A DNA stretch of 64,000 nucleotides from Eledone cirrhosa. Taxonomy: Eukaryota. The notes under the pieces are model-generated. The model was not told where the DNA came from, did no database searches, and saw only the letters and a program-made list of their open reading frames with translations. The stretch is taken from NCBI GenBank assembly GCA_964016885.1, contig OZ024742.1, positions 301,258,001 through 301,322,000 on the forward strand, written 5' to 3'. Below, piece by piece: positions 1-29,786 of the stretch (its first letter is position 1; each line of letters opens with the position of its first letter). A program made the position numbers and the translations under genes.

Positions 1-605
1 CTGTATATCTGCAACCACCAAATTCTCACCCTCTCTATATCACGTAACGCTCTTCCAATACTCCTCTCTATACCAATTAACACCAATACTCCCCCTCTCT
101 ATATCTACTACACCGAACTCTCTTCCAATCCCCCTCTATATATCAATTACCACCAAACTATCCCCCTCTCTATATCTTCTATACAATACTCTCTCTCATT
201 CCCTCTCACTCTATCCATCACTACTAAACTCTCATCCTCTCTATATCTATCAATACCTATTTCTATCAATCCTCTCACCCTATTCATTACCACCAAACTC
301 TCTGCCTCTCTACATCAACCATACAACACTCACTCCCATTCCCCCTCTATATCAATTAACACCAAACTCTCCCATATTTATATCTACCACATGGAACTCT
401 CTTCCAACCCCCTCTTTATATCAATTAACACCAAACTATCCCTCTCTCTATATCTACTATACGGAACTCTCTTCCAATACCCTTCTATATATCAATTAAC
501 GCCAAACTCTCCCTCTCTATATATCTACTACACGGAACTCTCTTCAAATTCTTCTCTCTATATCAATAAATATCAATCTCTCTCCCTCTCTATATCAATT
601 ACCAC
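1..605. repeat. Degenerate CT-rich minisatellite (alternating ~33-37 bp units); resumes at ~6290-6400 after the Tx1 insertion
   Basis: Recurrent ctctctatatcaattaacaccaaactctccc / tctctatatctactacaccgaactctcttcc units on both sides of the LINE. Confidence 0.8.
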
Positions 606-802
606 TTGATATAGACGTGATTTACTTTGCTCCGGATTTTTGCGGATTGTTGTAAAAAAGAACTGTGAGTTTATTGATCAATTTAATAACATTGTTTGGT
701 TTAGCCCCTTGCCTTGGCCGTCAGACGTTAAGTCAACAAATTTTCGCCCCTTTCTGGGGCGAAATTTTCAATTTTCATCTAAAAACTGTAGACTTGGTGG
801 CA

Positions 803-2584
803 ATGGATGCCATTTCCACCTCGCACACTGTCGTGAGTGCCACGCCCACTAAGAAAAGTGGTGGAGGGAAGGTAGGAGTACAAAGCTTGCAGCCGTCCCC
901 CCTCGCATCATCGAAAAACGTGGAAAATATCGAAACCGCGAAACCAAACCCGGTAAATAATACCAGCACCAACAACAAAAACAATGACAACAACACCACA
1001 ACCAACAACTGCAACAATAGAAACACCAATATTACCAACAGTGACAGTAACACGAAAGACAACAACACCAAAACAACATTTGCACAGACCGTAAAAAAAG
1101 ACGAACTATACACGCCAATAGACATAACAAATGCTAAACAACTATTACAAGATGCAAAACAATTCGTGATTTTTGGCGAAAACGGTGCTTTTAGCATCAA
1201 TTCTCCACAGGAATTACGTAGAGAGGCTGTCCTGAAAACTGGTTTTCAGGACAATATCGAACGTAACAAGAAAACCAGCTCAATTATCACAAAATGAAAT
1301 TGAGCTGGTTCTAAAAGACGCAATGAAGGACTTAACCTTCATACAAAAAGGTAAACTGTTTGGTAGCATTTCGGTGCTGATGAACAACCAGTCAACAGCT
1401 CAAAAGTACTCGATAGCACCCATTGTGTCCCTCCCCACTTCACCTTTTACCCCACATACAGGGGAAAAAGGACACAGAGAATAAAAATAATGAGTATCAC
1501 ACCAAATGTAAACATTTGGTGGATACTATGTGGAATAATAAACTTTGACGAAGACAAGATAATTTCAATAGGAAAGTCCTCCGCAGGTGTATTTGGTGGG
1601 ACCACCGTAGAAGTTCTGGTGCAAATGAGCCCAGAACGAATAGCGAATATCCCACAACGCGTGCCTCTGGACGGGCTAACTTATATAAACATTTCAGTGG
1701 AGGGAAGGCGGCCGTCATGTTACCACCTGAGGGCTGCCTGTCCTCAATTAACGAGTCAAAAAAAAAAGGCTCTTCTGCCAATCCCAAACACAACAACACA
1801 ACCACCACCACCACCACCACAACAACACAACCACCACCACCACCACAACAACAACACGGAAAAAATAACAACACAAAACACTGTTCCACCCAACCCCTCC
1901 CCACCTAAAACAAATACAAAAGCAACCACAACAAAACCCCAAAATATACCCCTCCCCAACAACACGGAAGAGGACTCCGTATCAACGTCACCCAGTGACG
2001 ACGAGGGAGAACCCTTTCAACAGGTGAAAAGGAAAAAAAAAAGGCACCACATTAACAAAAATGCCACAAACACACAACCACCAGCACAAACAGAACAAAC
2101 ATCACAAATAAAAAAACCCACCCCTCCCCAAAACATAACACGTACTATAAAACGCAAACACCCGCAAGAACAACAAACAAAAACAAACACAACACAACAA
2201 AAACTCTATACATACATTAACAAGAACAATAAAACGTTGATGAAAGCGATAGAAAATAACCCTTCGGTGGAAACCGAAGGGATCACTTTCACCTACGCAG
2301 CGAACAAACCGCACCTAATGATGATTAGGGTCCCAACGGAAACCTATGTAACTTTGAAAAAGAACCATCCAATGCATGTGGGGACCAACTGCACCAAACC
2401 ACATAACAGCGTCCTATTGAGATGTTTCCCCACCCCCACACCAGACACCCACACCCCACCAAACACCCTAATCCCACCACAAACTGATGTCCTCACCCCA
2501 CCACAAACCACCACCCCACCAAACAACCCTTCCAACACCCCCATGGAAATTGTGCAGCCTGGTCCCCAGGAGACGAAGAGGTAA
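803..2584 (+). pseudogene. Tx1 ORF1 (gag-like), broken by frameshift/stop near 1297
   Basis: ORFs 665-1297 and 1490-2584; GRRPSCYH-LRAACP is a deleted CCHC knuckle (compare GRRPRYFVCGEATHLQAFCP in copy C); N/T/P-rich linkers. Confidence 0.75.
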
Positions 2585-2626
2585 GTAATTTCCTTTCCTC
2601 TTCCTTTTTACCTCTTCAGCACTAAC

Positions 2627-5600
2627 ATGGCCAATATAAGAGTTGGATGTGTGAATGCACGCGGCTTGGGGATGTCCTGGAAACAGGGCAAACTCTTAAA
2701 TGACCTCAGGTCGCACAGAGTGGATGTAATGGTTATTTGCGAGTCCAGGATCAGCAGCGAGCGCCAACTGGCCCCCATCTTCGACGACTTTGAGATCTAC
2801 GCATCTCTCAGTCAGCCGAGGGGTGGGGGTGGGGTTGTCGTTCTGCTACGAAAATACCTGGGTCTTGCCACACAGAAGGTACACCTGGACCCGGAGGGTC
2901 GACTGGTGGTTTTAGACGTCGGCAGTGGTGAAGGTGGAGCTTTCAGGCTGGTGGCAGCGTATGCCCCATCGGGGACACCGCGACCGGACTTCTTCCGACG
3001 CCTGGAGAATTTCCTGGGAACGTCTCGCTCCTTGCTTTTAGTGGGGGACTGGAATGGTATCCTGGATGCACGTTGGGACTATGTAGGGGCATGTCCCGAT
3101 AGAGGGGGTTGTAACAGCCTCAAACGATTAATCGGCCGATTTGATCTGGCCGATAGATATCGACTGGATTTTCCGACTGTGCCACGGTGGACGTGGAGTA
3201 ATCGCAGTGGAACATCCAGGTCGTACCTAGATAGGTTCCTAGTTAGAAATAAGGATAGGGACATATTAAGCTGTCCACGAATGTTCATGGTTGACTATTC
3301 GGATCACAAGTTGTTGACCGGAGTGGTCAACCTTGATAGAACTCATAGACAGGGACCCGGTTACTGGAAGCTAAACTTGTATTTACCGACAAACAAAGCT
3401 TACAGTAAGCGGATTAGCACACTAGTTAAGCAGCGTTTGACGGGGCAATTGTCAACAACAGGTGGTGGGGCTCTCTCAAGAGAGAAATTAGAATAGAATC
3501 GATAGGTTTTAGTCGGGAATTAGCATCAAATAGGAATAGAACTGAAAGGGAATTAATAAATAGAGTAGAAGATGCGATTAGGAGTGGAAACGTGGACGGC
3601 GTGCTGGCGTCAAGAACGGCCCTAGACCAGTTCTTTGATGCGAAGCACGAGGGCTGCGTTGTCAGGAGTAAAATACGTGCTCTGGGTAACGAGGGAGCCA
3701 AAGCTGTTAGCTGGGCGCGAGTGACAGAGGCAAAAAGTGGAAACAAGTCCACGATTAGGTCTTTGAAGGACCAGGATGGACGCGTGATCCTTGAACCTGA
3801 GCGGATGAGCGCGGCCTTTCAACGGCGCTTTGCACGACTGTTCGGGAGGGGCGGCGGGCCGGGTGGGGCCATGGATTTCGGTCCATACCTCGACGGTCTG
3901 GCGCGGCTCTCGGACGGGGAGGCGAAGTTCTGCGAGAGGCCGATTTCAGCCGCTGAAATAGGGGAAGTGCTGAGCCAATGCGGCAAACGCAAATCTCCGG
4001 GTCTCGATGGTCTACCATACGAACTTTATGTAGCGATGCCGGGCTTGTTCTCCGGTCTCCTCGAGGCGGTCTACTGCAACTGGCAACAGAACGGGAAAAT
4101 TCCCAGTTCTGTGACCAAGGGCGTAGTCACGCTGGTGAGGAAGGACGAGAACAAGGGGGATGACATAGATAACTTCAGGCCCATAACTCTTCTAAACACA
4201 GAGTTAAAGATTTTGGCCAAGCTGTTAGCGAAGAGGTTGGCGCTTGTCGTCGGGAACCTGGTGGGAGAAGCGCAGACATGCGCAATCCCGTCCAGGTCCA
4301 TACACGACAACCTCCACCTCATGCGATACATCGTAGAGAGGGTAGGGAACGAACCCGGCTTTGGTGGGGCCCTGATCAACTTGGATCAATCTAAAGCGTT
4401 CGATAGGGTTGACCATCGGTACCTGGATGCGGTGCTAGCGGCGGCAGGCTTCGGACCCGTTTTCAGGGGCTGGATTGCTGCAATGCACAGCAGCAACACC
4501 TGCTCGAGGGTCAAGGTGAACGGCTACCTCTCGGAGCCGTTCCAAATCACGCGATCCATTCGATAGGGATGCCCTCTCTCCTCCCTCCTGTATGTGCTGG
4601 CTCTCGAGCCACTACTGAGGAAGCTGGAGCTGTTGTAGGGCATCCCCTTGGAACCGGGATTGCGGAAAGCGGTGTCGGCCTACGCCGATGACGTGACAGT
4701 AATGGTGTCGTGCGCCTCGGAAATCGGGCAGATCGGCACATTACTGGAGGAATATGAAAGGTTCACAGGAGCCAAGCTGAACCGAGACAAGTCCGTCGGT
4801 TTGCAACTCGGGACGTGGAGGGGCAAAACGATGCCCTCCGACGGCATCGTCGGACGCTGGACGGGGGGACCGGTGAAGCTGCTCGGGGTCTGGTTCGGAC
4901 CGGACCTCCAGGTGGAGAAAAACTGGTACGAGGTAACGGGCAAGGTGTTTGCACTCGCCCAGAAGTGGGCCGAGTGCAAACTATCCCTGAAAGGTCGAGC
5001 GGAGGTAGTGAACGCTTATATATCGTCCGTCATCTACTACCGCTTGACCGTCGTGCCTTGCCCAGAGAAAACACTCGCCAAATTGGAGCGCGCGCTCTTC
5101 CGATTTCTTTGGCAGAAGCGGGCTCCTTTGGTGAGAAGATCCATCTGCTGTCAACACCCTTCGAACGGAGGGCTGGGGATGCCGTAGACACGCATTAAGG
5201 CTACGGCACCTCCAGGTATTCCTCACCGGTCAGCCGGTGTGGGCCCTGTTTGTGAGGCGAGCCTTTCCGAGACTCGTCTCACTCACCTAGCTGCAATCCT
5301 GGGTCAAGCAAAGACCGAGAATAGTGGGCGACTGGCACATTGAATGTGCCCAGGCGCTCACGGCCCTCTGGCAAGCGGATCCGGCAATCAGTGGAGACTC
5401 AACCTCAACATTCTATAGAGGGTTGGTGCGCAGTAAGTGCGACGACGCTCTCGGAGAGGCTCTGGGCATAGAGGAAGACGAGCTGGCTAGTCTGTTCGGT
5501 AGGACGTTTGGCCCGGGACCGATGGACAACTTCCAAAAGTCCCTGGCTTGGCAATGTTACCGAGGAGCTCTACCCGTTCGGGACAAGCTCTACAGACACG

Positions 5601-6049
5601 GGCGCCCGGGTAGGGACCCCTCGAAGAAGATCTGTCCAAGATGCGTGCGTGACGAGGAAACCGTCGCACACGCATTCGTACACTGCCCGGGCGTTGCTGA
5701 CCTGTGGGGCTATGTAGAACGACTACTGTCGCGGGTGGGACCAATCCGGTTGACCACCGAGAACATTGTCACAATCAAACCGCCTCCCCCTTTCAAAAAC
5801 GAAGGAGAGGCGGTTTTCCTCTGTGTGATAACCATGGCGAAAGAAGTTGTATGGTGGACAAGGTTGAAAGGGCTGAGGTCAGACACCTATCTCTCCGGCC
5901 AACAACTGGTCTTTTTTTTCAAGTACCACTTTAGAAGAAGGATCAGAATGGAGAGAGAGGTGCTCTACCCCAGCAAGTTTTATGAAAGATGGGTGAAAGT
6001 AGCGAGAATGGCCCGAGTGAATGGGCCTTCTCTCTATATCAGCCTGTAG
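2627..6049 (+). pseudogene. Tx1 ORF2: APE endonuclease + reverse transcriptase, several stops/frameshifts
   Basis: NARGL, YAP, GDWN, LDRF, SDH (APE); KSPGLDG, FRPITLLN, DQSKAFDRVDH, YADD (RT); CPRC...HAFVHC. Confidence 0.92.
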
Positions 6050-7570
6050 GTGAGAGAGGAGAAGAATGAGAAGAGGAAGGAAGCACCCGCTCTTTGTGCT
6101 CCTGAAGAGGAGGGTTGCACATTTTTTCGGGGGTGTGTGCGACCCATGTCAACGCCCCTCCCTATTGAGGACATCGATTGTTAAATTTAATTTGTTATAT
6201 GTTTTTTACACGTCTTTTTAAATGTATGTAAACTCCCCCCTTTGTATATGTCCCAATCTTTGATGCCCTGGTGGCAAATAAATAGAAATATATATCTAAT
6301 ATACAACACTCTCTCCAAACCTTCCTCTCTATATCAATTAATACCATATTCTCCCCCTCTCTATATCTATATCTATCTCTCCCAACTGTCTCTACTTAAC
6401 ATGTAGATATATTGTAGCGCATATACACATAGATGTGTGTTTTGGCAGTTTGGGTTCCATTGCCCCAGATATAGCATTTTTCGAAATACTGTAACGAAAA
6501 TCTTTTTTCTCTAATTAGGGCTTACTTTCTTTTTCTGTTTCGCAGGATCCAGTTTTGATCCTAAACAGTTGGGTGATATTAGGATAACGTTAGTTTTATT
6601 TTGGGGTGAGGGTAGGAGTGAAGCCTATCGTAAAAAAAAAATGTCATTTCAAATTGTTTTTTTAAGTTAGGGTTTTGCATCCTGCTCAATGTTTTATTTT
6701 ATTTTATTCTTTTTATTGCTTCTATTTATCTTAGTTAAGTGAAATATTTTTCTCCGCTTCCCCATTATTCTGCCGAAATGTAGTTTCGTTTGTTTGTATT
6801 TCTTACTTAAGGTATTTTCCTTATTTATTATTTTATCTATGGAATATATCATGTAAATACAGTTTAATTTAGATTGAGAAGAATGGAATGTAAAATAGGA
6901 AAATATAAAGAAGAAAAGAGAATAAGAAAGAAAAAATGGGAAGGGGAGGAAATGACAAGGACTCGTGTGTCACGGAAGAGTTGGAGGATGATTGGGCTCT
7001 GGGTCGAGGGCGTGGCGGTGGAGGGGCTGCGTCCCGCGGACAAGACCACAAAAGCATTCCCGCGGATAATGGCCAGCTCCGCCCGCTGCTACAGCCACCC
7101 CACTCGCGGGGCTCCTTCCTCAGACGAGCCGCCGACGTTCCGATCTTGCGGAGTTGTTCGACTGTGCAGGGTCCAACTATTTTTTCCTAAAGACACAATT
7201 AGAATGACATCTTGTGGGGGTATATCTTATTTTTCAATGCAAACATTAACTGCAAGTATCCCTTCAATTGTTTTTGTTGTCTAGATTTCTTGATGGCATC
7301 AATAACCTGTTTGTCCACCTCCTACTGGTCTTCTTTACGTTCCTTCGTTACATTGACATATAAGGAAAATTTGATATATAGGATATTTGTTTGTTTGATA
7401 TACATTAGGATGTTTACTTACAGGTATTTGTTTACTAGTGGATCCCTTATCTGTTGATGGTAGACAGTCATTCTGGTCTTTAGTTTTGTTCTATATAGTC
7501 GTCAATTAACCCATTACATTTTATAAAATAGATACTCTTTTTGGTAAATATTTCTCCTCAATTAAATTCA

Positions 7571-9646: not shown

Positions 9647-9705
<59 letters not shown>

Positions 9706-12700
9706 TTTCTTTATTAACCACAAGGGTTTACATAAAGTAGACATTAAGGACAGTGCAGGACAATACAGGACGGTACAAATGGGCATTTCTGCGTGTAAAA
9801 AACAAAAAAAAAAAACAGAGGGTGTAACAAAAAATAACAATGAAAAATTCCCCAATAGGGGGGAGACTTCCGAGGGACATTTGTGGAGAAAGCCCATTAA
9901 AAGGCCACAGTGACCCTGACCACCAGGGCAAGTGCCCTCTCCCAGTTTTCCACCTTTAATTTACAGACACATACTCAGAGTAGGCCCATTAACTCGGGCC
10001 ATACTTGCTTCTCTCACCCATCTTTCAACAAAATGCTGGGAAGAGAGCACTTCCCTCTCTACCCTGATTTTCCTTTTCAAATGAAATTTGGAAAAAGTTA
10101 ATCAGGGCATCACCGAAGAGGTAAGTGCTCGTCTTCAGCCCTTTCAAACGTGTCCACCATACTATCGCTTTCGCCATGGCCATCAGACAGATAAAAACTG
10201 CCTGCCCTTCCCGGCTAAAGGAAGAGGGCGGGGCAATCCTCACGATGGACTCAGCTGATAGCCGGATCCGACCTACACGCGACAGCAGGTATTCGACATA
10301 AACCCACAAGTTAGCAATTTTCGGACACTGGACGAGTGCGTGCAGGACGGTTTCGTCGCCCTGCGCGCATCTCGGACATGCTCGGCTGACGACACCTCCA
10401 TGCCTGTAGAGTTTATTCCGAACTGGCAAAGCTCCTCGGTAGCACTGCCAGGGATTTCTGGAAGTTGTCCATAGGCCCCGGCCCAAAAGTTCTTCCGAAG
10501 AGATTGGTTAGTTGATTTTCGTCGAGGCTTAGAGTTTCCCGAAGTACATCGTCGCTCTTCCCCTCCACTAATCCTCTATAGAACGCCGAGGTGGAGTTTC
10601 CACCGATCACATTGCCCGATTGGTCGAGGGCTGTGAACGCCTGAAGACATTCCAGTCTCCAAGCGCTCCCTCTCGGGCTTCGCTTGACCAAGGACTGCAG
10701 CTCCGTCAAGGAGACGAGCTGGGGAAAGACGCGTCTAGCAAACGGCGACCACACCTGATCACCGTCGAGGAAGAGGTAGAGATGTCGTAGCCTGAGTGCG
10801 TGTCTGCGCATCATCAGCCACGGCAAGCCCAGCCCTCCGCGTAGCGGGTGTTGACAACAGATGGACCGCCTGACCATCGGAGCGCGTCCCTTCCACAAAA
10901 AGCGAAAGAGCAAACGTTCCAGTGCAGTCAGGCGGGGCTTAGGACAAGGTACGACGGTCAGGCGGTAGCAGATGACGGACGTGATGTACGCGTTAGCTAC
11001 CTCCGCTCGACCTTTCAGGGATAGCTTCCTCTCCGCCCATTTCTGGGTGAGAGAAGCCACCCTGCTCGTCACCTCGTCCCAGTTTTTGTCCGTCTGGAGG
11101 TCCGGACCGAACCAGACCCCTAGCAATTTAACCGGCCCGTCCGTCCAGCGCCCGACGACGCTGTTGGACGGCATGGACCTGCCTCTCCAGATGCCGAGCT
11201 GCAGGCCCACTGACTTTTCCTGGTTGATCATTGCTCCTGTCACCGCTTCGTATTCTCTTAGTGTAGTGCCGATCGCCTCGATGTGTTTGGCGTTCGACAC
11301 CACTACGGTGACATCGTCCGCATATGCTGACACGGATCTTCCGCATCCTAGTTCACGCGGGACCCCCCTCAACGTCTCCAGTTTGTGCAGTAATGGCTAG
11401 AGAGTCAATACGTACGAGAGGGACGAGAGGGGACATCCTTGGCGGACCGAGCGCATGATGTTGAACGGTTCCGAAAGGTGACCGTTCACTCTCACCACAG
11501 AGCAGATGTCGCTGTGCATGGCAGCGATCCAGCCTCTGAAGACGGGCCCAAAGCCAACCGCCCTCAGGACTGCCGCTAGGTAACGATGGTCGACCCTATC
11601 GAAAGCTTTCGACTGATCTAAATTGATCAAGGACCCACCCGTGCAAGGTTCCCTAGCTACCCTCTCTACGATGTATCGCATGAGGTGGAGGTTGTCGTGG
11701 ATGGATCTGTCGGGAATGGCGCATGTCTGCGCCTCTCTCACCAGACCACCAACAACAAGCGCCAACCTCTTTGCTAGCACCTTGGCCAAAATCTTGAACT
11801 CTGTGTTTAGCAGAGTTATGGGCCTGAAATTATCTATGTTATCCCCCTTGTTCGGATCCTTTCTCAGCAGCGCCACAGCTCCTCGGCTCACAGAGCTGGG
11901 AATTCTCCCGTTCTGTTGCCAGTTGCAGTAGACGTCCGCCAAGAGGCCGCCGAACAAGTTTGGCATCTGTACGTAAAGTTCATAGGGAAGACCATCCAAA
12001 CCAGGCGATTTACCCCTTGTGCAGCCAGTCATTTCCTCCCGTACTTCAGCGGCTGTTATCGGCTTTTCGCAACACTCCGCCTCAGTGGTCGAGAGCTGCG
12101 GCAGTCCGTCGAGGTAGACACTAAAGTCCATCCCTCTACCCGGTCCACCGCCGCCCCCGAACAGCTGAGCGAAGTGTCGCTGAAAAGCTTTACACATTTG
12201 CCCGGGATCGAGTAGCATGCGCCCGTCGTGGTCCACCAAAGACCGGATCGTAGCTTTGTTTCCACGACGCGCCTCCGCCACTCGGGCCCATTGAACGGCT
12301 TTCGTCCCCTCGTGTCTGAGAGCACGCACCCTAGCTCTGACAACGCAGCCTTCGTGCTTTGCATTGATGAATTGGTCAAGGGCCAATTTCGCCGCAAGTA
12401 CGTCGGTCCCGATGCCTTTGCTAAGCGCCTCGTCTAATTTTCTAACTAGTTCTCCCTCTGCTCTATTTTTCTCTATTGCTAAAGCCTTACTAAACCTAAT
12501 GGACTCTCTTCTAATCCCTCTTTTCAGAGCAAACCACCACCTGTTGTTGACGATGGCCCCCGTCAACGCCCGCTTAACTAGTTCGCTAATCCGGTCTCTG
12601 TAGGCCTTGCGCGCTGCTAAGGACGCGTTTAGCTTCCAGTAGCCGGGTCCTCGTCTATGAAGCCTATCTAAGTCAAGCACACAGATCACGAATTTGTGGT

Positions 12701-13100
12701 CTGTGTAGCTGACTATCTTGATTTGTGGACAGCCTATGCTAGACCTATCTATTTCCCTACAAAATACTCTATCTAGATATGATCTGGATGACCCTATGCG
12801 GTTTGTCCAAGTCCACATTGGCACATTCGGGAAATCCAATCGGTACCTGTCAGACAGTTCAAAACGCCTGAGCAGGCTGGTGAGGCTCTTGCACCCTCCT
12901 CCCCTATCCGCTAATCCCACACAGTCCCAGCGTGCATCTAAGATCCCGTTCCAGTCGTCTACTAACACTAAAGAGCGGGACGTTCTTAGAAAGGTCTCCA
13001 GACGCCGGAAGAATCAGGCTGCCGTGCTCCTGTCGGGGCATAGACGGCCACTAGCCTGAAAGCTTGCCCGTCTCCGCTGGTCACATCCAGCACCACCAAC
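9640..13100 (-). mobile_element. 5'-truncated Tx1-clade LINE, copy B, with (ATT)n tail at 9640-9703
   Basis: ORFs 11397-12968, 10413-11372 and 10025-10486 carry APE, RT (QGCPLS, YADD) and CPRC motifs; 3' end CCCTTGTGGTTAATAAAGAAATC(ATT)n. Confidence 0.92.
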
Positions 13101-13434: not shown

Positions 13435-13644
13435 AATAATAATAATAATAATAATAATAATTGTTTCTACTTTTGGCACAAGGCCAGCAATAACCCAGTA
13501 CATTACTGGTACTTCATTTTATCGACCCCGTAAGGATGAAAGGCAAAGTTAACCTCGGCGGGATTTGAACTCAGATCATAAAGGGCCGTAACTCTATGCT
13601 GCAAAGCATAGTGTCCGACCCTCTACCGATACTGCCAATCCACC
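13435..13644 (-). mobile_element. tRNA-type SINE (family S1), full length with (ATT)n tail
   Basis: A-box-like TGGCAGTATCGG, B-box GAGTTCAAATCC, core ctttgcctttcatccttacggggtcgataaaatgaagtaccag, tail GTAGAAACA(ATT)n. Confidence 0.85.
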
Positions 13645-14007
13645 AATAATAATGATTTCATTTATTGGCCACAAGATTCGACATGTAGGGTACAATACAA
13701 AGACAGGGACAGTGGGGGTTTACAATAAGCTCGAGTAAAAGTGCACAATGGCAAGACTAATTTAACAAAGAAGATATAAAAATATAAAATAAACGATGCA
13801 TAAATATAACAAAATAAATTCCCCGATAGGGAGGTGGACGACTCAGGGGTGACTCAGGTACCCCACCAATCCTGAACCACCCTGCGCTTCTAGGGCACCT
13901 GGGGAGAGCACCCCTCCTCCTCAAATTAGCTAGCCTACAGGCGCATGGTCAGAGTAGGCCCATTCACACGGGCCATTCTCACCACATTCATCCACCTTTT
14001 AGAAGTG
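13645..14007 (-). mobile_element. 3' fragment of Tx1 LINE (same family as copy C)
   Basis: Close match to 18920-19275 (ORF2 end and 3'UTR). Confidence 0.85.
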
Positions 14008-14131
14008 TAATAATAATAGTTTCTACTTTTGACACAAGGCCAGCAATTACCCAGTACATTACTGGTACTTTATTTTATCGACTCCGTAAGGATGAAAGGC
14101 AGAGTTAACCTCGGTGGGATTTGAACTCAGA
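14008..14131 (-). mobile_element. SINE S1, 5'-truncated
   Basis: B-box, core and tail as in 13435-13644. Confidence 0.8.
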
Positions 14132-16928
14132 CCTGGGTTAGTCGCAGACTGCACCAGGTTGCGGCTGCAGAAAGTGTCGGTGCAAGTAGCATCCTAGACG
14201 AGGGGTTTACCACCGCTGAACGGGAAGATGGTCATGCCATATGGCCTTTGGTCGTCCCCTCGGTCCAGCCCCACCGGCTCGAGCTGGGAAGGGAAGCCCG
14301 CAGCGTCCAAGCCATGCTTCATGACCTCCTTGAGGGCAGCATGGCGTGGAAGGCAGTTGGCACTGTGGCGACAGGAAAGCGGGTGGAGGCCGAAAGAGTC
14401 CACGGTGGAACCGCAGCGACATTGGTGTGGCTCGCAGATCCGGAGGCTGAGCCTCAAGGAAACGCCGATGCGCAAGCTATTGTTGTCTAGCTGCGTACCA
14501 GTGGAGAAGGAGGGCAGGGCATGGAGCCAGGCACCACTGTGGGGTTTGGAGGCCGCACGAAAGCAGGCAAAGCGGTGCTGATCGAGCTGGCGCGTGAGCC
14601 TGTCTGAGGCCAGGCTGCACTGGATGGCATCCCAAGTGCTTTAGGGGGACTTGACGTCAACAGGGAGAGAAGGAGGGACGTCTACTGGGCCAAGTCCCAG
14701 CCGGTCCCACGTCTCACAGGCGGCCTCACGTTCTCTGAACACAGAGGGTTCTATTGTGTTTTGAAGAACCTTTCTGACGAGGACGCGGCACGTGGTTACC
14801 GACGAAAGATATGCTGGAAAAGCCAGCGAGATCGGGGACCGGAGGCCAAGACCGCCATACCTGACAGGTAAAGTGGCCTGGTGCCATCCAATGTCGTCAA
14901 CCTTGACGTTGCATATCTCCTCGGCTGCTGCTCGGATACAAGTATCAAGGTCAGCGAGGAGAGATGTGTGGGTGTAGCACGGAACGCTGCGAAGGGTATA
15001 GAGGAGCTTCGGCATGGCGAAGCAGTTCCTCAACAGAAAGAGAGCTGGGTGGCCGTCGATCAAGCCCAGTCGGCTCGTGAGAGTCTGGAGTTGTTGAAGC
15101 CTGGACCTGTTTGTGGAGCGGATGGTCGGCGGGTGGATCGGTGACCCGAGGATGAGGACATCCTCTTTGGGGGTCACCTGTACCTGGTGGAGAATGGACC
15201 ACACGTCCGAGACGGAGGCTGCAAAGCTCTCAGCATCGTGGCTGACATTCACCACCTCCAACTTGGCCGAGTTGACCTCGAGGCTGATTCCCGCCAGGGC
15301 AGGAACCACCAATTGTAGGTCATGGCAGACAGTCTGTACGGGCCCGCCCAACGTAGCATCAACCAGATACCAAACGTTATGAGGGGCCGTGATACTCCGG
15401 GAGATGTGGTCTATACCAAGGGCAAACAGGAGGGGTCCCAAAGGGTCGCCCTTTTTGGACCCCAGTAGCCGAAGGTATGACTGTATCAGCAGCAAGGAGC
15501 ATGCTCGGGGCTCCATACGGCAGGTAGGCCAGCAGGTAGGCAGAGGAGGCTCGGCTGAGGCAGGCATCGAGCAGATGGTCCTGGCGCAAGCAGTTGAAGG
15601 CATTCCTTATGTCAAGCTTGACAATGAGGTGCCTGGAGTCCATGGATGCTGGTTCCGGTGGGCAGCTGTTGAAGAACTGCCTGGTTGCATGTGCGGCCCC
15701 CTCACAGCCACCTGACACGCCGACAACCTGTTGCACCGGACTGAACTCCTCACCCAGTTCGGGTGTTATGGACCTGCAGACCACCTTGGCAGCCAGCCTC
15801 TGGAAAACATTGCCCACAGCGATGAGCGTATGCCACCCTCTTTCTTTCTGAGAGCGGTGAGGCTAGCCGAAAAAAAGAGGCCTCGGGTCAGGGTGCCATG
15901 GATGAGTCTATTGGTGAGCGCCACAATTGCACTCAGAAGGCGGCGCTCGGCCTCAGCGGAGAGGGGAGATAGCAACTCCTTGAGGTGGCTTGGTCGGAGA
16001 CCATCAGCACCTCCGCTGCTTCTAGCTGGGAAGGACTTGATGGCAGACATGATGTCTGCGTCAGAAGCCACAAGGAGCAAGTTGGGGTCGGGTGAGGGTA
16101 TGGGTCTGAGATCAGCGGGTGGCTCAGGGTGTTTGAGTCGTAGGGCATCCAGGACCTCCTCGGTGGGTTGGAGGACAGTGTCCTCTGAGGCAACCACTCT
16201 GACTGCGGCCGAGACATTACCCATGATTAGTTTAGCATTTACGCGGTTACGCAAACGCTTGACGCTGGCTTCAGGGGTGGAGGATTGGGGGTACCCGAGG
16301 GTGGGGTGTGCGGCGTCCCTGGACACGCTTGGAATGGGCGTTTGCCCAAAGGACGAAACATTGGCCTTGACGAAGGCTGCTGTCGACCGGCCGCCCCAGT
16401 CAGCGCCAGAGCTGGGGAGGCCGAGGGCGAAATAAAAGAGTCGCTCCCAGTCGCTGGCTCGATTGGAGTCTAGGGCGCTTTCAATTGAGGAAGCGAGGGC
16501 ATTGGCTACCTGCACCCGGGCCGCTTTCGGGATCCTGAGTGCGATCTTCCGGAGCCGCCTAAGCCGAGCAATGTTGACCAGCGACGCTTGGGCGTCAGGC
16601 AAGCTCGCTGTCTCATCTGGTGGTGTGCCAGACGGCCGTGGCTGGGAAGACGAGGAGAAGAGGCAGTCCCTGCATCTCCATGCTGCGAGGGCACTGGAAT
16701 TCGACGTGTCAAGCCACCACAGGTGAGATGGTGGAAGCAGCCGCACCCCGAACAGTTCCGGCCCTTCTTCCGTCTGTTAGTGGTGCTGCAAATGCTGCAG
16801 GTGTCGGCTTTGGGGGATGGGGGATGGGGCGTGGGGCCAGAGACTGAGGCACCGAGCGGCATCAGGGGTGAGTGGATGGCGTGTGTGGGTGGAAGGGGAA
16901 GTGCTGGTAAGAGGGCCTCATAGCTCAC
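14132..16928 (-). mobile_element. Decayed CRE-clade non-LTR retrotransposon (PHD finger - RT - zinc knuckle - RLE), 3' end truncated
   Basis: CSIC...CSGCGCFHHLTC...WRCRDC; AMGNVFQRLAAK, GGCEGAAHA, KLDIRNAFN, GDPLGPLLF, LPVRYGGLG; CRCG..D..GLHPLSC, RH, RPYG(D), DATCTDT. Confidence 0.8.
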
Positions 16929-17197
16929 TTACATCAGATATAGAGGCGTCAGCGGACAAGAGAGAAAAGAAGGGGTGCATGGAGGTGGACACACAAGAAG
17001 GTAGAATGTTAGCAAATGAATGAGTGAATGGATGAATGTACAAACCCAGAGTTCAGCACGCACACATGCGAGCTTGTTAGCAGTTTCTCATAGGATCTTG
17101 TGGCTGGGGATGAGTCATTCAATCCTGAAAGCATATGTGCTGTTGTTGCTGTTATTGCTAGTGTTGTTGTTCTTGTCACTGATGCTGGAGTTGGCTT

Positions 17198-18701: not shown

Positions 18702-18915
18702 TCTTTTCACTCGGAGAATATAAACATTCCCGAGTTCAAATTACGAACTGGCGCTATTCAAAATTGTTCCCGAGATAAGAATGAATGATGTGGAAGCAAT
18801 TCTGTCCAGTGCCGTGTGTAAAAATAGAAGCAGAGGCAGCTAGGTCAGTCTACTACCACTATAAATAGCAGCAGTCAAAACGACCAAATTTTATCTCGAC
18901 CAAGAGGAGAAAAAA

Positions 18916-21900
18916 TTATGATTTCATTTATTAGCCACCAGGGCCGACATGTAGGGGACAATACAAAGACAGGGACAGTGGGGGTTTACAATAAGCTCGA
19001 GTAAAAGTGCACAATGGCCAGACTAATTTAACAATGAAAATATAAAAATATAAAATAAACTATGCATAAATATAACAAAATAAATTCCCCGATAGGGGGT
19101 GGACGACCCTGGGGTGACTCGGGTACCCCACCAATCCTGAACCACCCTGCGCTTCTAGGGCATCAGGGGAGAGCACCCCTCTCCTCAAGTTAGCTAGCCT
19201 ACAGGCGCATGGTCAGAGTGGGTCCATTCACACGAGCCATTCTCGCCACATTCACCCACCTTTTAGCAAATGTACTAAGGGGCAGCACTTCTCTCTCCAC
19301 CCTCACCTTCCTTTCCAAGTGAAACTTGAAGAAGTTGATGAGGGATTGGCCGAAGAGAAAAGTGTCTGTCTTCAGTCCTTTTAACCTGGTCCACCATATA
19401 ACCTCTTTCGCAACTGCCACCAGACAGAGGAAAATTTCCTGCTCTTTCTGACCTAAGGAAGGCGGTGGATCGATCTTCACTATGGACTCGGCCGATAGCC
19501 GGATTCGTTCCACACGCGACAGTAACTGTTCGACATAACTCCACAAGTCAGTAATGCACGGACATTGGACAAGTGCGTGCAGAACGGTTTCGTCGTTCTG
19601 TGCGCATCTTGGGCAGGTCCGTCTGACAGCACTTCCGTGCCTGTAGAGTTTATCCCGAACCGGCAGTGCCCCCCGGTAGCACTGCCAAGCGAGGGATTTC
19701 TGGAAATTGTCCATCGTCCCCGGCTCAAAAGTCCTCCGGTACAGACTGGTCAGTTCGACTTCGTCGAGGCCCAAAGCTTCTCAGAGTGCGTCATCGCACT
19801 TGCCCACCACTAATCCTCTATAGAACTCGAGAGTGGAAGTTCCACTGATCGCATTGCCCGCTTGGTAGAGGGCAGTGAGTGCCTGGCAACATTCCAGGTT
19901 CCAGTCTCGTTCTCTTCTTGACCCAGGACTGCAGCTCAGTCAAAGAAATGAGCTGCGGAAAGGCCCGTCTGATAAACGGCGACCACACCTGTTCACCGTT
20001 GAGGCAGAATATCTGGAGATGTCGCAGCCTCAACGCATGCCTGCGCATCATTAGCCACGGCATGCCCAGCCCTCCGCGTAGAGGGTGCTGGATGGACCGC
20101 CTCACCAACGGAACTTGTCCTCTCCACAAGAATTTGAAGAGGAGCCGTTCCAACTTGACGAGGTGCGGACGGGGGAAAGGGACGACCGTCAGGCGGTAGT
20201 AGATGACGGACGCGATGTACGCATTCGCCACCTCCGCGCGACCTTTCAGTGATAGCTTCCTCCCAGCCCATTTTTGGGTGAGACTGGCTACTCTGCTCGT
20301 TACCTCGTCCCAATTCTTTTCCACCTGGAGGTCTGGTCCGAACCAAACCCCGAGCAACTTTACCGGTCCGTCCGTCCAGCGCCCCACAACGCTGTTGGAC
20401 GGCATGGGCTTGCCTCTCCAGGTTCCGAGCTGCAAGCCCACCGACTTTTCCGGGTTAAGTTTGGCTTCTGTCAACCTTTCATATTCCTTCAATAAGGTGC
20501 CGACCACCTCGATTTCTGAGGTGTTCGACATCATCACGGTGATGTCGTCCGCATAAGCCGACACAGCCTTTCCGCGTCCCGGTTCGAGCGGGATGTCCTG
20601 CAACAGCTCCAGCTTCCGCAGTAAGGGCTCGAGAGTCAATACGTACAGAAGGGAAGAGAGAGGGCACCCTTGACGGACCGATCGGGAGAGCCGAAATGGT
20701 TCCAAGAGGTGGCCATTAACCTTGACCACCGAGCGTGTGCCACTGTGCATTGCAGCGATCCAGCTTCTAAAGACAGGGCCGAAGCCAGCTGCTTTGAGGA
20801 CAAACTCCAGATACCGATGGTCGAACCTATCGAATGCTTTCGATTGATCTAAATTGATCAGTTCCCCACCGAAGCCAGGTACACCCTACCCTCTCTATGA
20901 TGTATCGCATGAGGTGGAGATTGTCGTGTATGGACCTGGCTGGGATTGCGCAAGTTTGCGCCTCCCCAACCAAATCCTCGACGACAAGCGCCAATCTCTT
21001 TGCTAACACCTTGGCCAAAATCTTAAACTCTGTGTTGAGCAGAGTTATGGGCCTAAAGTTGTCTAATATATCCCTCTTGTTCTCGTCTTTCCTTATCAGC
21101 GTCACCACTCCCCTGCTCACAGAACTGGGAATACTCCCATTCTGCTGCCAGTTGCAGTAAAGTGCTTCGAGGAGTTCGGAGAACAAGTCTAGCATATTTA
21201 CGTAAAGCTCGTAGGGCAGGCCATCCAAACCGGGTGACTTGCGCCTTATGCAGCCGACAAGGGCATCCTGAATTTCGGCTGAAGTAATCGGCCTTTCGCA
21301 GCGCTCAGCGTCGACCGTCGAGATGCGCGGCAAGCCGTCAAGGTAGGGACTGAAATCCGCTACTCTCTCTGACTCGCCACTCTCCCCGAACAACCGAGCA
21401 AATTGCTGGCGAAAGGCCTCACACATCCGCTTGGAATCGCTTATCTCGTGTCCGTCTCGGTCCGCCAAAGACCGAATTGTGGTTTTATTACCACGCTGCG
21501 CCTCCGCCACGCGGGCACATCGAACAGCTTTGGTTCCCTCGTTTCTCAGCGTACGCGCCTTAGCTCTGACAATGCAACCTTCGTGTTTCGCATTGAAGAA
21601 ATGGTCTAATGCCATTCTCGCCGCTAGCACGTCAGTTGCAATACCACTACAAATAGCCTCGTCTAACTTATCTACCAGCTCCCCTCCTTTCTATTTTTCT
21701 CTAACGCTAGTTCTTTGCTGAACTCTATCGAAGTTACTCTAATCTCTCTTTTGAGAGCTCCCCACCATCTGTTGTTGATGATCCCCCCTGTCAACTTTTG
21801 CTTAACTAAATTGTTGACTCGATCCCTGTAAGCCTTACGTGCCGGAAATGACATGTTCAGCTTCCAGTAATCCGGTCCTAACCTACGCGTTTTATCTAGG

Positions 21901-23696
21901 TCGACCGTACAGATCACAAATTTGTGATCTGAATAGGCGACCGTTTTAAAAAGTGGGCAGCCCACACTATTTCTATCTATTTTCCTAATGAAGATCCTGT
22001 CTATATACGATCTAGATGACCCCATTCGGTTGGTCCATGTCCATACTGTCACATTGGGGAAATCTAGTCGATACCTGTCAGACAGTTGGAACTGGCTAAG
22101 TAGGTGCTTGAGGCTTTTGCACCCCCCGCTCCTATCGGCTACTCCCACACAATCCCAGCGTGCGTCTAAGATGCCATTCCAGTCCCCCGCTAACAGTAAA
22201 GGGCGAGACGTACCCAGAAAGGTCTCTAGGCGCCTAAAGAAGTCCGGTCGTCCGGCCCCTGTAGGGGCATAGACAGCCAGCAGTCTAAAGGCACCACCTT
22301 TGCTACTGCTCACATCCAAGACCACCAACTTACCGTCCGGGTCCCGGAAGATCGACCTTACCTCGAGATCCAGTCCTTTCCTAAACAGCACTGCCACCCC
22401 ACCCCCATTACCGCTCTGCTAACAGATGCAAAGATCTGATAGTCGTCGAAAATTGGGGCTAGTGCGCGCGTGTCGGAAATACTGGTCTCGCTGATGGCAA
22501 TCACATCCATTTCCAGCGACCTGAGGTCGTTGAGCAGGCGACCCTGCTTCCAGGGTGACCCCAGGCCGCGAACATTTAAACTTCCTACTCTTAATATGGC
22601 CATATTGGTAAGCTAAGAGAGAGAGAGGGAAGGTTTACTTACCTCCCGGGGTCTTGTGAAGGTCGGGTGGTTCTACCTCCATGGTTGGTGGGGTTTCTTT
22701 TGGGAACCCCTTTAAAAGTCTTGATGTGGGTTTAACATTCGGGGTTCCCACGTCTTGAGGAAAGCTCTCTCGAATTTCTTTGAAGGAATTGAGTGACATT
22801 CGGACCAGAAGCAAATCTTCTGGCACGCAAAATGTGCTCATTTCAAAAATCTCCCCCTCTGTTTGAATGTCCTCGCTTCGTGCTAAGAGGGCCATCAGTT
22901 TATCGTTGGTCCTTCTGACAAGCACGAAGTTTTTAGCATTTTGTTGGTGTGGTTTTATTTGTTTTCGTTTTGGTGACTGTGGTGGTGATGGTTTTGGTGG
23001 TGTTGTTTCGGGTATGTCTGTGTTTGTTGTAGGTGTGGTGTCTGCAATTTCAGGTATTATTTGTGTGTTTATTTGTACTTGTGTTTGTTTAGGTTGTTTG
23101 CGTTTCGGGGATTGTGGAGGTGGTGTCGATGTTGCTGTTGGTGATGATGTTATTGGGGAAGTGTTTGCGTTAGTGGTGTCTGTATTTTTTGTTGTGTATG
23201 TTTTTGTGTTTTGTTGGGGCTTTTTTTTTTGTGAGTTTTCTCTGTTTTTTTGCACTTTTGGGTTTTCCTTCATCTTCGCTGCTGGAAAACAAAGGGTCTG
23301 TGGCTGTGAGTGTCTCTGTGTCTGTGTGTGCGTTTATTGTTTTGTCTATGTGTATAATTGGGGGAGGGGAGGGGGAGTGGGAGAGCTTTCCCCGTTTTCT
23401 CCTTGGATTGGTTTTGGTGTTGGTGGTGATCCGGCTGTTTTTTATGTTGGTGTCCGTGTTTTTGTTGGTGTTGTTTTTGGTGGTGGTGGTGGCGCAGCTT
23501 TCCGTGCTGACACTGGCGTTGGCAACAAAGGAGGTTTGCGACCCCCCTGCATTTTTGCGCTGAGGGCAGAAGGCTTGCAGATGCGTTGCTTCCCCGCAGA
23601 CGAAGTAGCGTGGCCTTCTTCCGTCAATGATTAATTGGATTGTTGTTCCGTCCTGCAGGCGGGCAAAATCCGGGATGTTGTTCATGTCCTCCTGAG
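18916..23696 (-). mobile_element. Tx1-clade LINE, copy C, 5'-truncated within ORF1
   Basis: ORF1 pieces 23170-23685 and 22635-23273 (CCHC-like knuckle); ORF2 pieces 22603-19199 with APE/RT/CPRC; 3' end GCCCTGTGGCTAATAAATGAAATC. Confidence 0.92.
19199..22603 (-). pseudogene. Tx1 ORF2 (APE + RT), frameshifted
   Basis: NVRGL, GDWN, SDH, QGCPLS, YADD motifs across five ORF fragments. Confidence 0.9.
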
Positions 23697-23914
23697 AATA
23701 ATAATAATAAAATATATATCCCTACACGCAAAAAGCGTATAGGGACACATATATATATATATATTTATTTATTAAAATAACAGATTAAAGTTTAAGTTTT
23801 CACCCTTAAGCAGCGATTCTTTGCTTAAACTTTAATCTGTTATTTTAATAAATATTTGCTCTACGGCTCTTAGATATTTGATAGCCCTCTTTGGATTTTA
23901 GTCTTCAACTTTAT

Positions 23915-24038
23915 TATCTGAGTTCAAATCCCGCCGAGGTTGACTTTGCCTTTCATCCTTACGGGGTCGATAAAATAAAGTACCAGTAATGCACTGGGTA
24001 TTTGCTGGCCTTGTGCCTAAAGTAGAAACAATTATTAC
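23915..24038 (+). mobile_element. SINE S1 fragment
   Basis: B-box, core, GTAGAAACAATTATT tail. Confidence 0.8.
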
Positions 24039-24367
24039 TGACTATCAACAGGGCTTTTTCTTTTTGTTGTTATTGCTGTCAACGTCTATTGTAATTAATT
24101 TTGTTGTTTACAACGATACTGAAATTTGGTGACATCCGTGTATATATAAACACATCTTCCCATACTTACACACCACACTACACTCACACACACACACACT
24201 TATATATAAACACATACACATTTACACACGCACACTCGTGTACACACATTCATATATAAACACCCATCCACAAACAACAGACATATACACACACATACCA
24301 CTAAGCACTAAGAATACACAGACTAAAACACACATATACGGTCGCACCCATGCACGCCAAACACACA

Positions 24368-24455
<88 letters not shown>

Positions 24456-24629
24456 CATTGGTTATTCACGGATCCCAAATTATAGGGGGTGGGGTGGAAT
24501 AAACGAGGGGTCGGTGGGGTGGACATTTGCTGAAGTTCTTATTGTCTATCGTAGTTATTTTTGTTGTTTACAAAGATACCAAAGATACGGAAATTTGGAG
24601 ACATCCGTGTATACACGAATACATCTTCC

Positions 24630-25962
24630 CAATCTCACACACCACACATACACTCACACTCACACTCACACACCACACATACACTCACACTCACACACCA
24701 CACATACACTCACACTCACACACCACACATACACTCACACACACCACACATACACTCACACTCACACACCACACATACACTCACACACACCACACACACA
24801 CTCACACTCACACAACACACATACACTCACACCACACATACACTCATACACACACACCACACATACACACTCACACACCACACATACACTCACACACCAC
24901 ACATACACTCACACTCACACACCACACATACACTCACACTCACACACCACACATACACGCACACACACCACACATACACTCACACTCACACACCACACAT
25001 ACACTCACACTCACACATACACTCACACACCACACATACACTCACACTCACACATACACTCACACTCACACACCACACATACACACTCACACACCACACA
25101 TACACTCACACACCACACATACACTCACACACCACACATACACTCACACACTCACACATACACTCACACACTCACACACCACACATACACTCACCACACA
25201 TACACTCACACACCACACATACACTCACACTCACACACCACACATACACTCACACACCACACATACACTCACACACCACACATGCACTCACACGCCACAC
25301 ATACACACTCACACACCACACATACACTCACACACCACACATACACTCACACTCACACACCACACATACACTCACACGCCACACATACACTCACCACACA
25401 TACACTCACACTCACACACCACACATACACTCACACACCACACATACACTCACACACCACACATGCACTCACACGCCACACATACACACTCACACACCAC
25501 ACATACACTCACACACCACACATACACTCACACTCACACACCACACATACACTCACACTCACACACCACACATACACTCACACTCAGACACCACACATAC
25601 ACTTACACACCACACATACACTCACACACCACACATACACTCACACACCACACATGCACTCACACGCCACACATACACACTCACACACCACACATACACT
25701 CACACACCACACATACACTCACACTCACACACCACACATACACTCACACTCACACACCACACATACACTCACACTCACACACCACACTCACACCACACAT
25801 ACACTCATACACACACATCACACATACACACTCACACACCACACATACACTCACACACCACACATACACTCACACTCACACACCACACTCACACCACACA
25901 TACACTCACACACCACACATACACTCACACTCACACACCACACATACACTCATACACACACA
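24630..25962. repeat. CA-rich compound minisatellite (cacaccacacatacactca)n
   Basis: Direct; the His/Thr ORFs are artefacts of the repeat. Confidence 0.9.
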
Positions 25963-25980
25963 CTTATATATAAGTACATA

Positions 25981-26167
25981 TTGGATTGGCAGTACCGGTA
26001 GAGAGTCAGACACCGTGCTTTGCAGCATAGAGTTATGACCCTTTACGTTCTGAGTTCAAATGCCGCCGAGGTTAACTTTGCCTTTCATCCTTAATGCGTC
26101 GATAAAATAAAGTACCAGTAATTCACTGAGATAATTGCTGGCCTTGTGCCAAAAGTAGAAACAATTA
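25981..26167 (+). mobile_element. SINE S1
   Basis: A/B boxes, core, tail. Confidence 0.8.
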
Positions 26168-26642
26168 TCAAATACCAATCAAGATATAAAAAAAAACTCC
26201 GATATGCCATAAAGATGTACATAAATTGTGTGGCATATACAAATAGATGTGTGTTTTGGTAGTTTTATGGGGGGGGGGGGGGGCATGGCCCCTTGTCCCC
26301 CCCCCCCCCTCCCTCCCCATTTCACAACCTCTGTAACATGTGGACAAATACGTATATATGTATATAGATGTATATTGATATATATAAGAAAGAAAAGGTA
26401 CGTGTGTATATATATGTATGTGTATATGTATGTGTGTACATATATGTGTGTATATGTATGTGTGTATATGTATGTGTATATATATATGTATATGTGTATA
26501 TGTATGTGTGTACATATATATGTGTCCATGTGAGAGAGAAATACTGTCATTAATCAGTTGACGTCAGTTATCAACATACATTAATTTATAGGCTGTTATA
26601 TTTTACCCTACCATTTCAACTGTTCTTATCAACCTTACTTCT

Positions 26643-26723
26643 ATGACCATGTCTAATCAGGGAGGGACAGAAACACTGGACCTAGCTAATCATTCTTCAC
26701 CTTCTTCTCCGGCCACACCACAG
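26643..26723 (+). CDS. SLC16: Predicted first coding exon of SLC16 transporter (MTMSNQGGTETLDLANHSSPSSPATPQ)
   Basis: ATG, 27 codons, CAG|GTCAGT donor in phase 0, matching the ATG-less phase-0 exon at 34477. Confidence 0.6.
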
Positions 26724-29700: not shown

Positions 29701-29750
29701 CCACACCACAGGTCAGTACACATCTCTTTCATCTCTTCTCCGGCCACACA
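26695..29750 (+). repeat. Satellite of 46/43-bp units (ttcacctcttctccggccacaccacag|gtcagtac[aac]acatctat), ~65-70 copies
   Basis: Direct; the first unit is the end of predicted exon 1. Confidence 0.95.
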
Positions 29751-29786
29751 TATATAATGATGAAAGTTATTTTTAAAAAGGTTTAA

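Follow-up and report, generated by a model that had tools for sequence, protein, structure and literature searches.

The translation of the second open reading frame (ORF) of long interspersed nuclear elements (LINEs) and the excess of the ORF1 protein (ORF1p) are unsettled, with reinitiation and internal entry as the contending explanations (PMC5381506). A spliced mRNA containing ORF2 only, SpORF2, is made by human L1 (PMC2896524), and splicing of L1 is currently viewed as harmful leakage (PMC5860796). A donor in the copia element EVD gives a GAG-only mRNA, and binding of U1 to it guards the full-length RNA (PMC5580714). For steric reasons, a 5' splice site and a branch point less than ~50 nucleotides (nt) apart cannot be paired (PMC7969005). 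Thirteen recently active L1-Tx1 families are known from Octopus vulgaris (PMC13282606). The subject of this report is a LINE of Eledone cirrhosa, copy A, which lies in a stretch of 64,000 nt (contig OZ024742.1, positions 301,258,001 to 301,322,000 of the forward strand; the window, whose numbering is used throughout). ORF1 of this element ends in a splice-donor sequence, and an acceptor-like site precedes ORF2.

The junction between ORF1 and ORF2

Copy A extends from ~606 to 6290 on the plus strand. Its ORF1 (803..2584) ends in AG|GTAAGT (2579..2586), a splice donor and U1-complementary site with a predicted cut between 2580 and 2581, and the ORF1 stop codon, TAA at 2582-2584, lies inside this donor. 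It is the sole sense site in 601-6300 that agrees with the donor consensus at at least 8 of 9 positions. An acceptor-like pyrimidine tract with a terminal CAG follows on the same strand (2589..2619) and ends 7 nt 5' of the ORF2 ATG. The 39 nt from 2581 to 2619, GTAAGTAATTTCCTTTCCTCTTCCTTTTTACCTCTTCAG, have AG immediately 5' of them and contain a GT donor, a pyrimidine tract and YAG, as a U2-type intron would. Their removal yields AGC ACT AAC ATG and the open frame ..QETK-STN-MANIRV... An earlier note on this DNA had described the donor on the ORF1 stop, the tract, the CAG and the in-frame outcome in copy A, and all of these are borne out by the sequence; the tract, which it called pure, is interrupted by one A at +30.

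The tract has a counterpart in copy C, a LINE of a separate family on the minus strand (18915..23745), which is 5'-truncated inside ORF1. ORF2 of the two copies has 67% protein identity and 55% identity at four-fold sites. The copy C junction (22613..22644, minus strand) reads GAG|GTAAGTAAA with the first G of the donor at 22642, followed by a CT tract and a TAG ending at 22613, 30 nt in all, and then by 9 nt before the ORF2 ATG at 22603. Nucleotide similarity between copies A and C begins at the motif (2578/22645), and their ORF1 ends have ~26% protein identity. No other such junction exists in the window; those of A and C are both intact.

A third lineage came from a scan of a genome collection with an alignment of the endonuclease, in which 64 of the 577 candidate stretches were confirmed, all on CAXXMW01 contigs. 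These loci (L001-L064, the far lineage) are head-to-tail arrays of a mostly intact eukaryote-type LINE, with units of 6.4-6.9 kb, inside a bacterial bin; the contigs are likely host DNA binned in error. L001 has an intact 633-residue ORF1 with a zinc knuckle (PF00098, E 1e-5) and a 1155-residue ORF2, which is 42% identical to that of copy A with a four-fold-site identity of 0.32 and saturated silent sites. All 64 loci have AG|GTAAGT one base past the ORF1 TAA (with an extra A in one locus) and 13 nt 5' of the ORF2 ATG. The inter-ORF spacer has no tract, the ORFs are offset by 2, and AG is absent in 62 of the 64 loci.

Thus, a U1-matching donor stands at the end of ORF1 in three lineages, and an acceptor-like site precedes the ORF2 ATG in two. 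The placement of the donor varies: it is inside the last codon in copy A, two codons before the ORF1 stop in copy C and one base after this stop in the far lineage, and therefore it is not tied to the frame. The chance that the 8 bases were kept by drift is ~0.008 between A and C and ~1e-4 between A and L001, by arithmetic from the four-fold-site identities of 0.55 and 0.32. By these comparisons, the conserved part of the junction is the donor and not the acceptor.

The 8-mer AGGTAAGT occurs in the window at chance frequency (3 against 2.57 expected, with 3 or more in 40 of 100 shuffles). The combination of AG|GTAAGT, tract and YAG within 25-60 nt, a pattern defined only after copy A had been inspected, occurs twice, against a mean of 0.017 (maximum 1) in 60 block shuffles, and the two matches coincide with the ORF1/ORF2 junctions of A and C, the only LINE copies with a junction. 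With the looser donor GTRAG the pattern is not above chance (5 against 2.35, maximum 6). In a post hoc test for enrichment, GTRAGT occurs 4 times in the sense non-coding sequence of L001 against 0.46 expected (P 0.001), and shows no enrichment in coding sequence (1 against 2.6) or on the antisense strand (1 against 0.6). The corresponding sense non-coding counts are 2 against 0.30 in copy A and 2 against 0.42 in the partial L023 set (P 0.07).

Proposed separate use of donor and acceptor, and its alternatives

The explanation we favour, and to which we would give an even chance, is that donor and acceptor are used separately and not as one intron, which would produce ORF1-only and ORF2-only mRNAs and leave unspliced RNA as the template. 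U1 small nuclear ribonucleoprotein would bind the donor at the end of ORF1. If this donor were spliced to an acceptor far downstream, past ORF2, the product would be the ORF1-only mRNA, for which the phase of the donor would be irrelevant. In A and C, a donor in the 5' untranslated region (UTR; 665 in A) would be joined to the ORF2-proximal acceptor (2619) to form an ORF2-only mRNA, and the first AUG of this mRNA would be the ORF2 start in the context AAC ATG G. The candidate 5' UTR donor of copy A, ACT|GTGAGT (662..670, plus strand), agrees with 7 of 9 consensus positions and contains the GTGAGT at 665-670 that had been singled out before; there is no ATG in 600-664. The two uses would exclude each other, because branch adenosines at the usual distance fall inside the donor (+3 to +9). 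The unspliced RNA would stay the template for retrotransposition, and copies would thus retain the splice signals. Bound U1 may additionally shield the RNA from early polyadenylation, as in EVD. Both this interpretation and a splicing-controlled fusion of ORF1 to ORF2 had been put forward in the earlier note: separate use fits all three lineages, and the fusion reading holds in only one of them.

The proposed ORF2-only mRNA resembles the human L1 products SpORF2 and SpIREs (PMC2896524, PMC5860796) in that a 5' UTR donor would pair with an acceptor located 5' of ORF2, and in that spliceosomal signals would be kept despite replication from unspliced RNA. Unlike in human L1, the acceptor is a dedicated tract that lies in the inter-ORF spacer 7-9 nt from the ORF2 ATG, and deep conservation is seen in the donor at the end of ORF1, for which the accessible parts of the two human L1 reports describe no equivalent. 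A conserved U1-matching donor that closes the structural ORF, as found here, is also a feature of the Ty1/copia element EVD near the end of its structural ORF, with its short-GAG mRNA (PMC5580714), and both a structural-protein-only mRNA and guarding of the full-length RNA, as in EVD, are predicted here. EVD, however, is a long terminal repeat element with a single GAG-POL frame, in which the stop arises through splicing, and splicing is linked with early termination, whereas here the element is a non-LTR LINE, known from its sequence alone, whose ORF1 has its own stop. A distance of less than ~50 nt from a donor to the next branch point is shared with the mutually exclusive exons of OGDH and alpha-tropomyosin (PMC7969005), but the "exons" here are whole retrotransposon ORFs and the branch point is predicted.

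Targeted searches of literature listings and the beginnings of abstracts, which do not extend to most subscription papers or to repeat databases, brought up no LINE with a conserved donor closing ORF1; novelty is not proven by this. The main text of a study of LINEs in the octopus brain (PMC9115989) contains none of "Tx1", "splic" and "intron"; the accessible parts of PMC5381506 contain neither "splic" nor "Tx1", and those of PMC12129022 neither "donor" nor "Tx1". The retention of the donor across lineages with saturated silent sites would imply, if the interpretation is correct, an intrinsic control of some LINEs by the spliceosome, or by U1 alone, that has arisen convergently in copia and retroviruses. 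A further prediction is that LINEs inserted in sense orientation within host introns trap splicing and yield ORF1 chimeras. The junction model supplies exact joins to seek in existing RNA-seq. A wider proposal is tentative, and we think it somewhat more probably wrong than right: Tx1-like LINEs may have a retrovirus-style splicing programme in which each ORF is flanked by donors and acceptors, a donor that overlaps the next branch point acts as a U1-versus-U2 switch, ORF1-only and ORF2-only mRNAs are produced alongside unspliced genomic RNA, and the ORF1p:ORF2p ratio is set by splicing and not by reinitiation.

Several observations weigh against separate use. Splicing of human L1 is detrimental and mostly evaded (PMC5860796), and the proposal is built on sequence signals and precedents, not on transcripts. 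The T-rich stretch in the 3' UTR of copy A has no AG between 6169 and 6284, and hence no acceptor there. The 5' UTR of copy C was lost by truncation, so that any upstream donor is unseen, and the far lineage has no usable acceptor beside the ORF2 ATG. The 64 far loci come from one assembly and are counted as one lineage, which makes three lineages overall. Within the far lineage, four-fold identity is 0.90-1.0 (43 distinct of 52 colinear loci), as in one young family, and the invariance of the donor is not significant (P ~0.19); it was rejected as proof of selection. Precisely spliced copies were sought in the far lineage and none was found: all 64 ORF1 ends run into the donor, and 95 and 84 acceptor-side anchors, counts that include overlapping loci twice, are all preceded by genomic sequence. 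This search is a limited test, as an ORF2 match was the basis for picking the loci and recombination may enlarge the arrays.

The main alternative, which we consider unlikely, is a U1 docking site that is rarely spliced and guards the long intronless transcript from premature cleavage and termination, with the tract aiding U1 recruitment. A pyrimidine tract behind a donor can aid U1 recruitment in a TIA-1-like manner. Such a site would explain why the donor is conserved and the acceptor is not, and why no spliced copies were seen among the far loci. It also agrees with the distribution of donors in the far lineage, where they occur in each of the three non-coding segments. Past the ORF2 stop, at a distance of 14 nt, there is a second donor, and behind it a pyrimidine stretch with CCTAG (L001:6486-6519); this module, present in 61 loci with a free length of 33-48 nt, repeats the donor-tract-AG geometry of the junction where nothing can be fused. 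Its donor is GTAAGT in 34 loci and GTGAGT in 27, an exchange in the 3' UTR between two donor-compatible forms. Another pyrimidine tract with TAG is found ~235 nt farther downstream, behind ORF2. The donor-compatible exchange and the tract-TAG sites behind ORF2 count in favour of separate use as well. Two unrelated types of 5' UTR each have a donor-like site, TCG|GTAAGA inside a 15-bp stem in one (L006:445-525, z -5.6) and AAA|GTAAGT in the other. There are also precedents, since premature termination of EVD is suppressed by U1 (PMC5580714) and Restrictor is blocked by a 5' splice site (PMC12211998). However, a pure U1 enhancer would have no need of the YAG with which the tract ends in A and C, at 7 and 9 nt from the ORF2 ATG, and ORF2 of copy A has a single AATAAA, at 3555, so that there is little downstream to protect.

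It is improbable that the resemblance to splice sites is coincidental, or that the motif instead serves translation as a stack of stop codons, an element for reinitiation or read-through, or a hairpin. GTAAGTAA contains TAA in two frames, each of which serves as the ORF1 stop, one in A and the other in C; the chance frequency of the 8-mer in the window fits a coincidence, and the inter-ORF regions of fish L1 elements are T-rich (PMC5381506). In the far lineage, however, the motif sits 3' of the ORF1 stop, in-frame read-through is limited to copy A, and stop codons leave AG|G and the GT at +5/+6 unexplained. The donor of copy A pairs in an 11-bp stem on folding, but composition accounts for this (the donor is paired as well in 164 of 500 shuffles, and folding is as good in 140 of 500), and the stem is not kept in copy C (407 of 500 shuffles). 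In the far lineage, 4 of the 6 related loci show more pairing than shuffles, but folding energy mostly does not exceed theirs, and a hairpin over the donor was rejected as the conserved feature.

Least probable of the three is an ORF1-ORF2 fusion protein, translated after excision of the 39 nt as an ultra-short intron. The in-frame outcome in copy A favours it, and both 39 and 30 are divisible by 3, but ORF1 (open over 1367-2584) and ORF2 (frame 2585-3496, ATG at 2627) of copy A are read in one frame with a single TAA separating them, and because of this any length divisible by 3, a 1 in 3 chance, suffices. ORF1 of copy C ends GGT AAG TAA with the donor in phase 1, and with 9 nt to the ATG the removal of 30 nt is out of frame as sequenced. 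A one-base homopolymer slip just 5' of the copy C donor would restore the frame, and ORF2 of copy C has 4 frameshifts in ~3.4 kb; a fusion in both families, however, requires compensating indels of 2 nt and 1 nt across the intron in addition to this private slip in C. In the far lineage, with 13 nt, a frame offset of 2 and almost no AG, it is impossible.

The branch point poses a further difficulty for the fusion. Adenosines occur in the 39 nt of copy A at +3, +4, +7, +8 and +30, the one at +30 (-10) being the only internal A, and none lies ~18-40 nt before the AG and at least ~50 nt from the donor, a distance threshold taken from PMC7969005. Copy C has no adenosine between +10 and +28, and therefore no lariat is possible within its 30 nt. 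Human introns of 37-65 nt do exist, with evidence for 15 of 22 screened (PMC4463651), and 39 nt is at the lower edge of this range, with the 30 nt of copy C below it; most confirmed human ones are G-rich with weak sites, whereas the sequence here is pyrimidine-rich with strong sites.

Protein searches offered a weak test of the fusion. No fused protein was seen among 3 long endonuclease matches or among the 120 listed of 411 ORF1 matches, the latter being genomic ORF calls of 222-1294 residues that mostly resemble the far lineage. The 3 endonuclease matches, found among 7001 candidates in a search of longer proteins, are not preceded by ORF1, and a search of plasmids with the endonuclease gave no match. 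The C-terminal half of copy A ORF1 had no match among 287 candidates from a 90% protein set, and its last 128 residues none among 1.84 billion representatives; as no relatives of this end were found, fused forms of copy A ORF1 could not be examined. Finally, intron mimicry against HUSH was rejected, as protection is reportedly not achieved by engineered splice signals on their own (PMC8770142).

Structure and classification of the LINE copies

Copy A is a decayed, dead copy, and its signals are therefore inherited from an active ancestor. The 5' UTR (606..802, plus strand) lies between a 71-bp minisatellite (41-595) and the first ORF1 ATG at 803, and its 5' boundary is approximate. At this boundary, in 588-620, TTGATATAGA is an inverted copy of the minisatellite's TCTATATCAA, which suggests fold-back or template switching at insertion. 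A weak acceptor-like site (765..791, plus strand) has its AG at 790-791, 11 nt 5' of the ORF1 ATG; it failed the tract filter and is speculative. ORF1 is broken at ~1290-1366 and has a degenerate zinc knuckle. It gave no Pfam match, and it is 29% identical to ORF1 of L001 with a weak profile match (independent E-value 0.14). An atlas search with ORF1 pointed tentatively to Mollusca (score 0.86). ORF2 (2627..6049, plus strand) contains an apurinic/apyrimidinic endonuclease (APE, PF03372), a reverse transcriptase (PF00078) and a C-terminal zinc domain (PF13966, zf-RVT), and is interrupted by frameshifts and stops. A weak donor-like site, TAG|GTGAGA (6047..6055, plus strand), lies over the ORF2 stop and is found neither in copies B and C nor in a 3' fragment, also in the window, that is close to copy C. 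The 3' UTR (6050..6290, plus strand) has the T-rich stretch and an AATAAA at 6277.

Copy B (9700..13100, minus strand) belongs to a third family and is truncated inside the endonuclease, so its junction is lost. In its 3' UTR (9780-9815, minus strand) a long T-run ends in ACACGCAG (CAG), a strong acceptor-like site; copy A has this T-run up to ACACG, without AG. The flank at the 5' part of copy C is interrupted by a copy of a repeat resembling a short interspersed nuclear element (SINE).

The two 5' UTR types of the far lineage suggest that 5' ends were exchanged within the family while ORF2 stayed in common. An acceptor-like YAG ~160 nt 5' of the far-lineage ORF2 ATG falls in conserved ORF1 codons and was not counted. 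Rfam gave nothing at the gathering threshold on 7 of the 64 far loci and the window; on 4 far loci only 3 chance-level microRNA matches were seen, and no RNA-gene target.

The elements have the characters of the L1 group (L1/Tx1). There are two ORFs and a 3' end with AATAAA and a short tail, and Pfam places an N-terminal APE, a reverse transcriptase and a C-terminal zinc domain in pieces of copy A ORF2 and in the intact ORF2 of L001. Among solved structures, human L1 ORF2p is the best relative (E 8e-74), and R2 ranks well behind it. In a tree without a Tx1/L1 reference set, A, B and C are close together and the far lineage stands apart with P0001 (88/90). The Tx1 clade is marked by an ORF1 with a CCHC zinc knuckle and by target-specific insertion into repeats. 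The knuckle has a Pfam match in ORF1 of L001 and is degenerate, without a Pfam match, in A and C. As to insertion, A lies in the 71-bp minisatellite, B ends in (ATT)n and the far lineage is in head-to-tail arrays; no duplication of a target was delimited. From this anatomy, membership of copy A in Tx1 is plausible.

Other repeats in the window

A GC-rich set of broken ORFs at 14130-16930 (minus strand) resembles a different non-LTR element, which from its motifs we take to be Hero/R2-like; five pieces of it had no Pfam or PDB match. A nearly intact Helitron Rep-helicase (Helitron_like_N, PIF1) with two in-frame stops is found at 45953-50500 (plus strand). Long tandem arrays occupy 24133-26001 and 26592-29786 and have stop-free frames of up to 1064 codons; the first of them contains dozens of GTGAGT on the minus strand. 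The abundant SINE-like repeat, reminiscent of octopus and 120-190 bp long with 85-97% identity between copies, occurs at 13450-13650, 14008-14131, 23909-24037 and in more than 10 further places.

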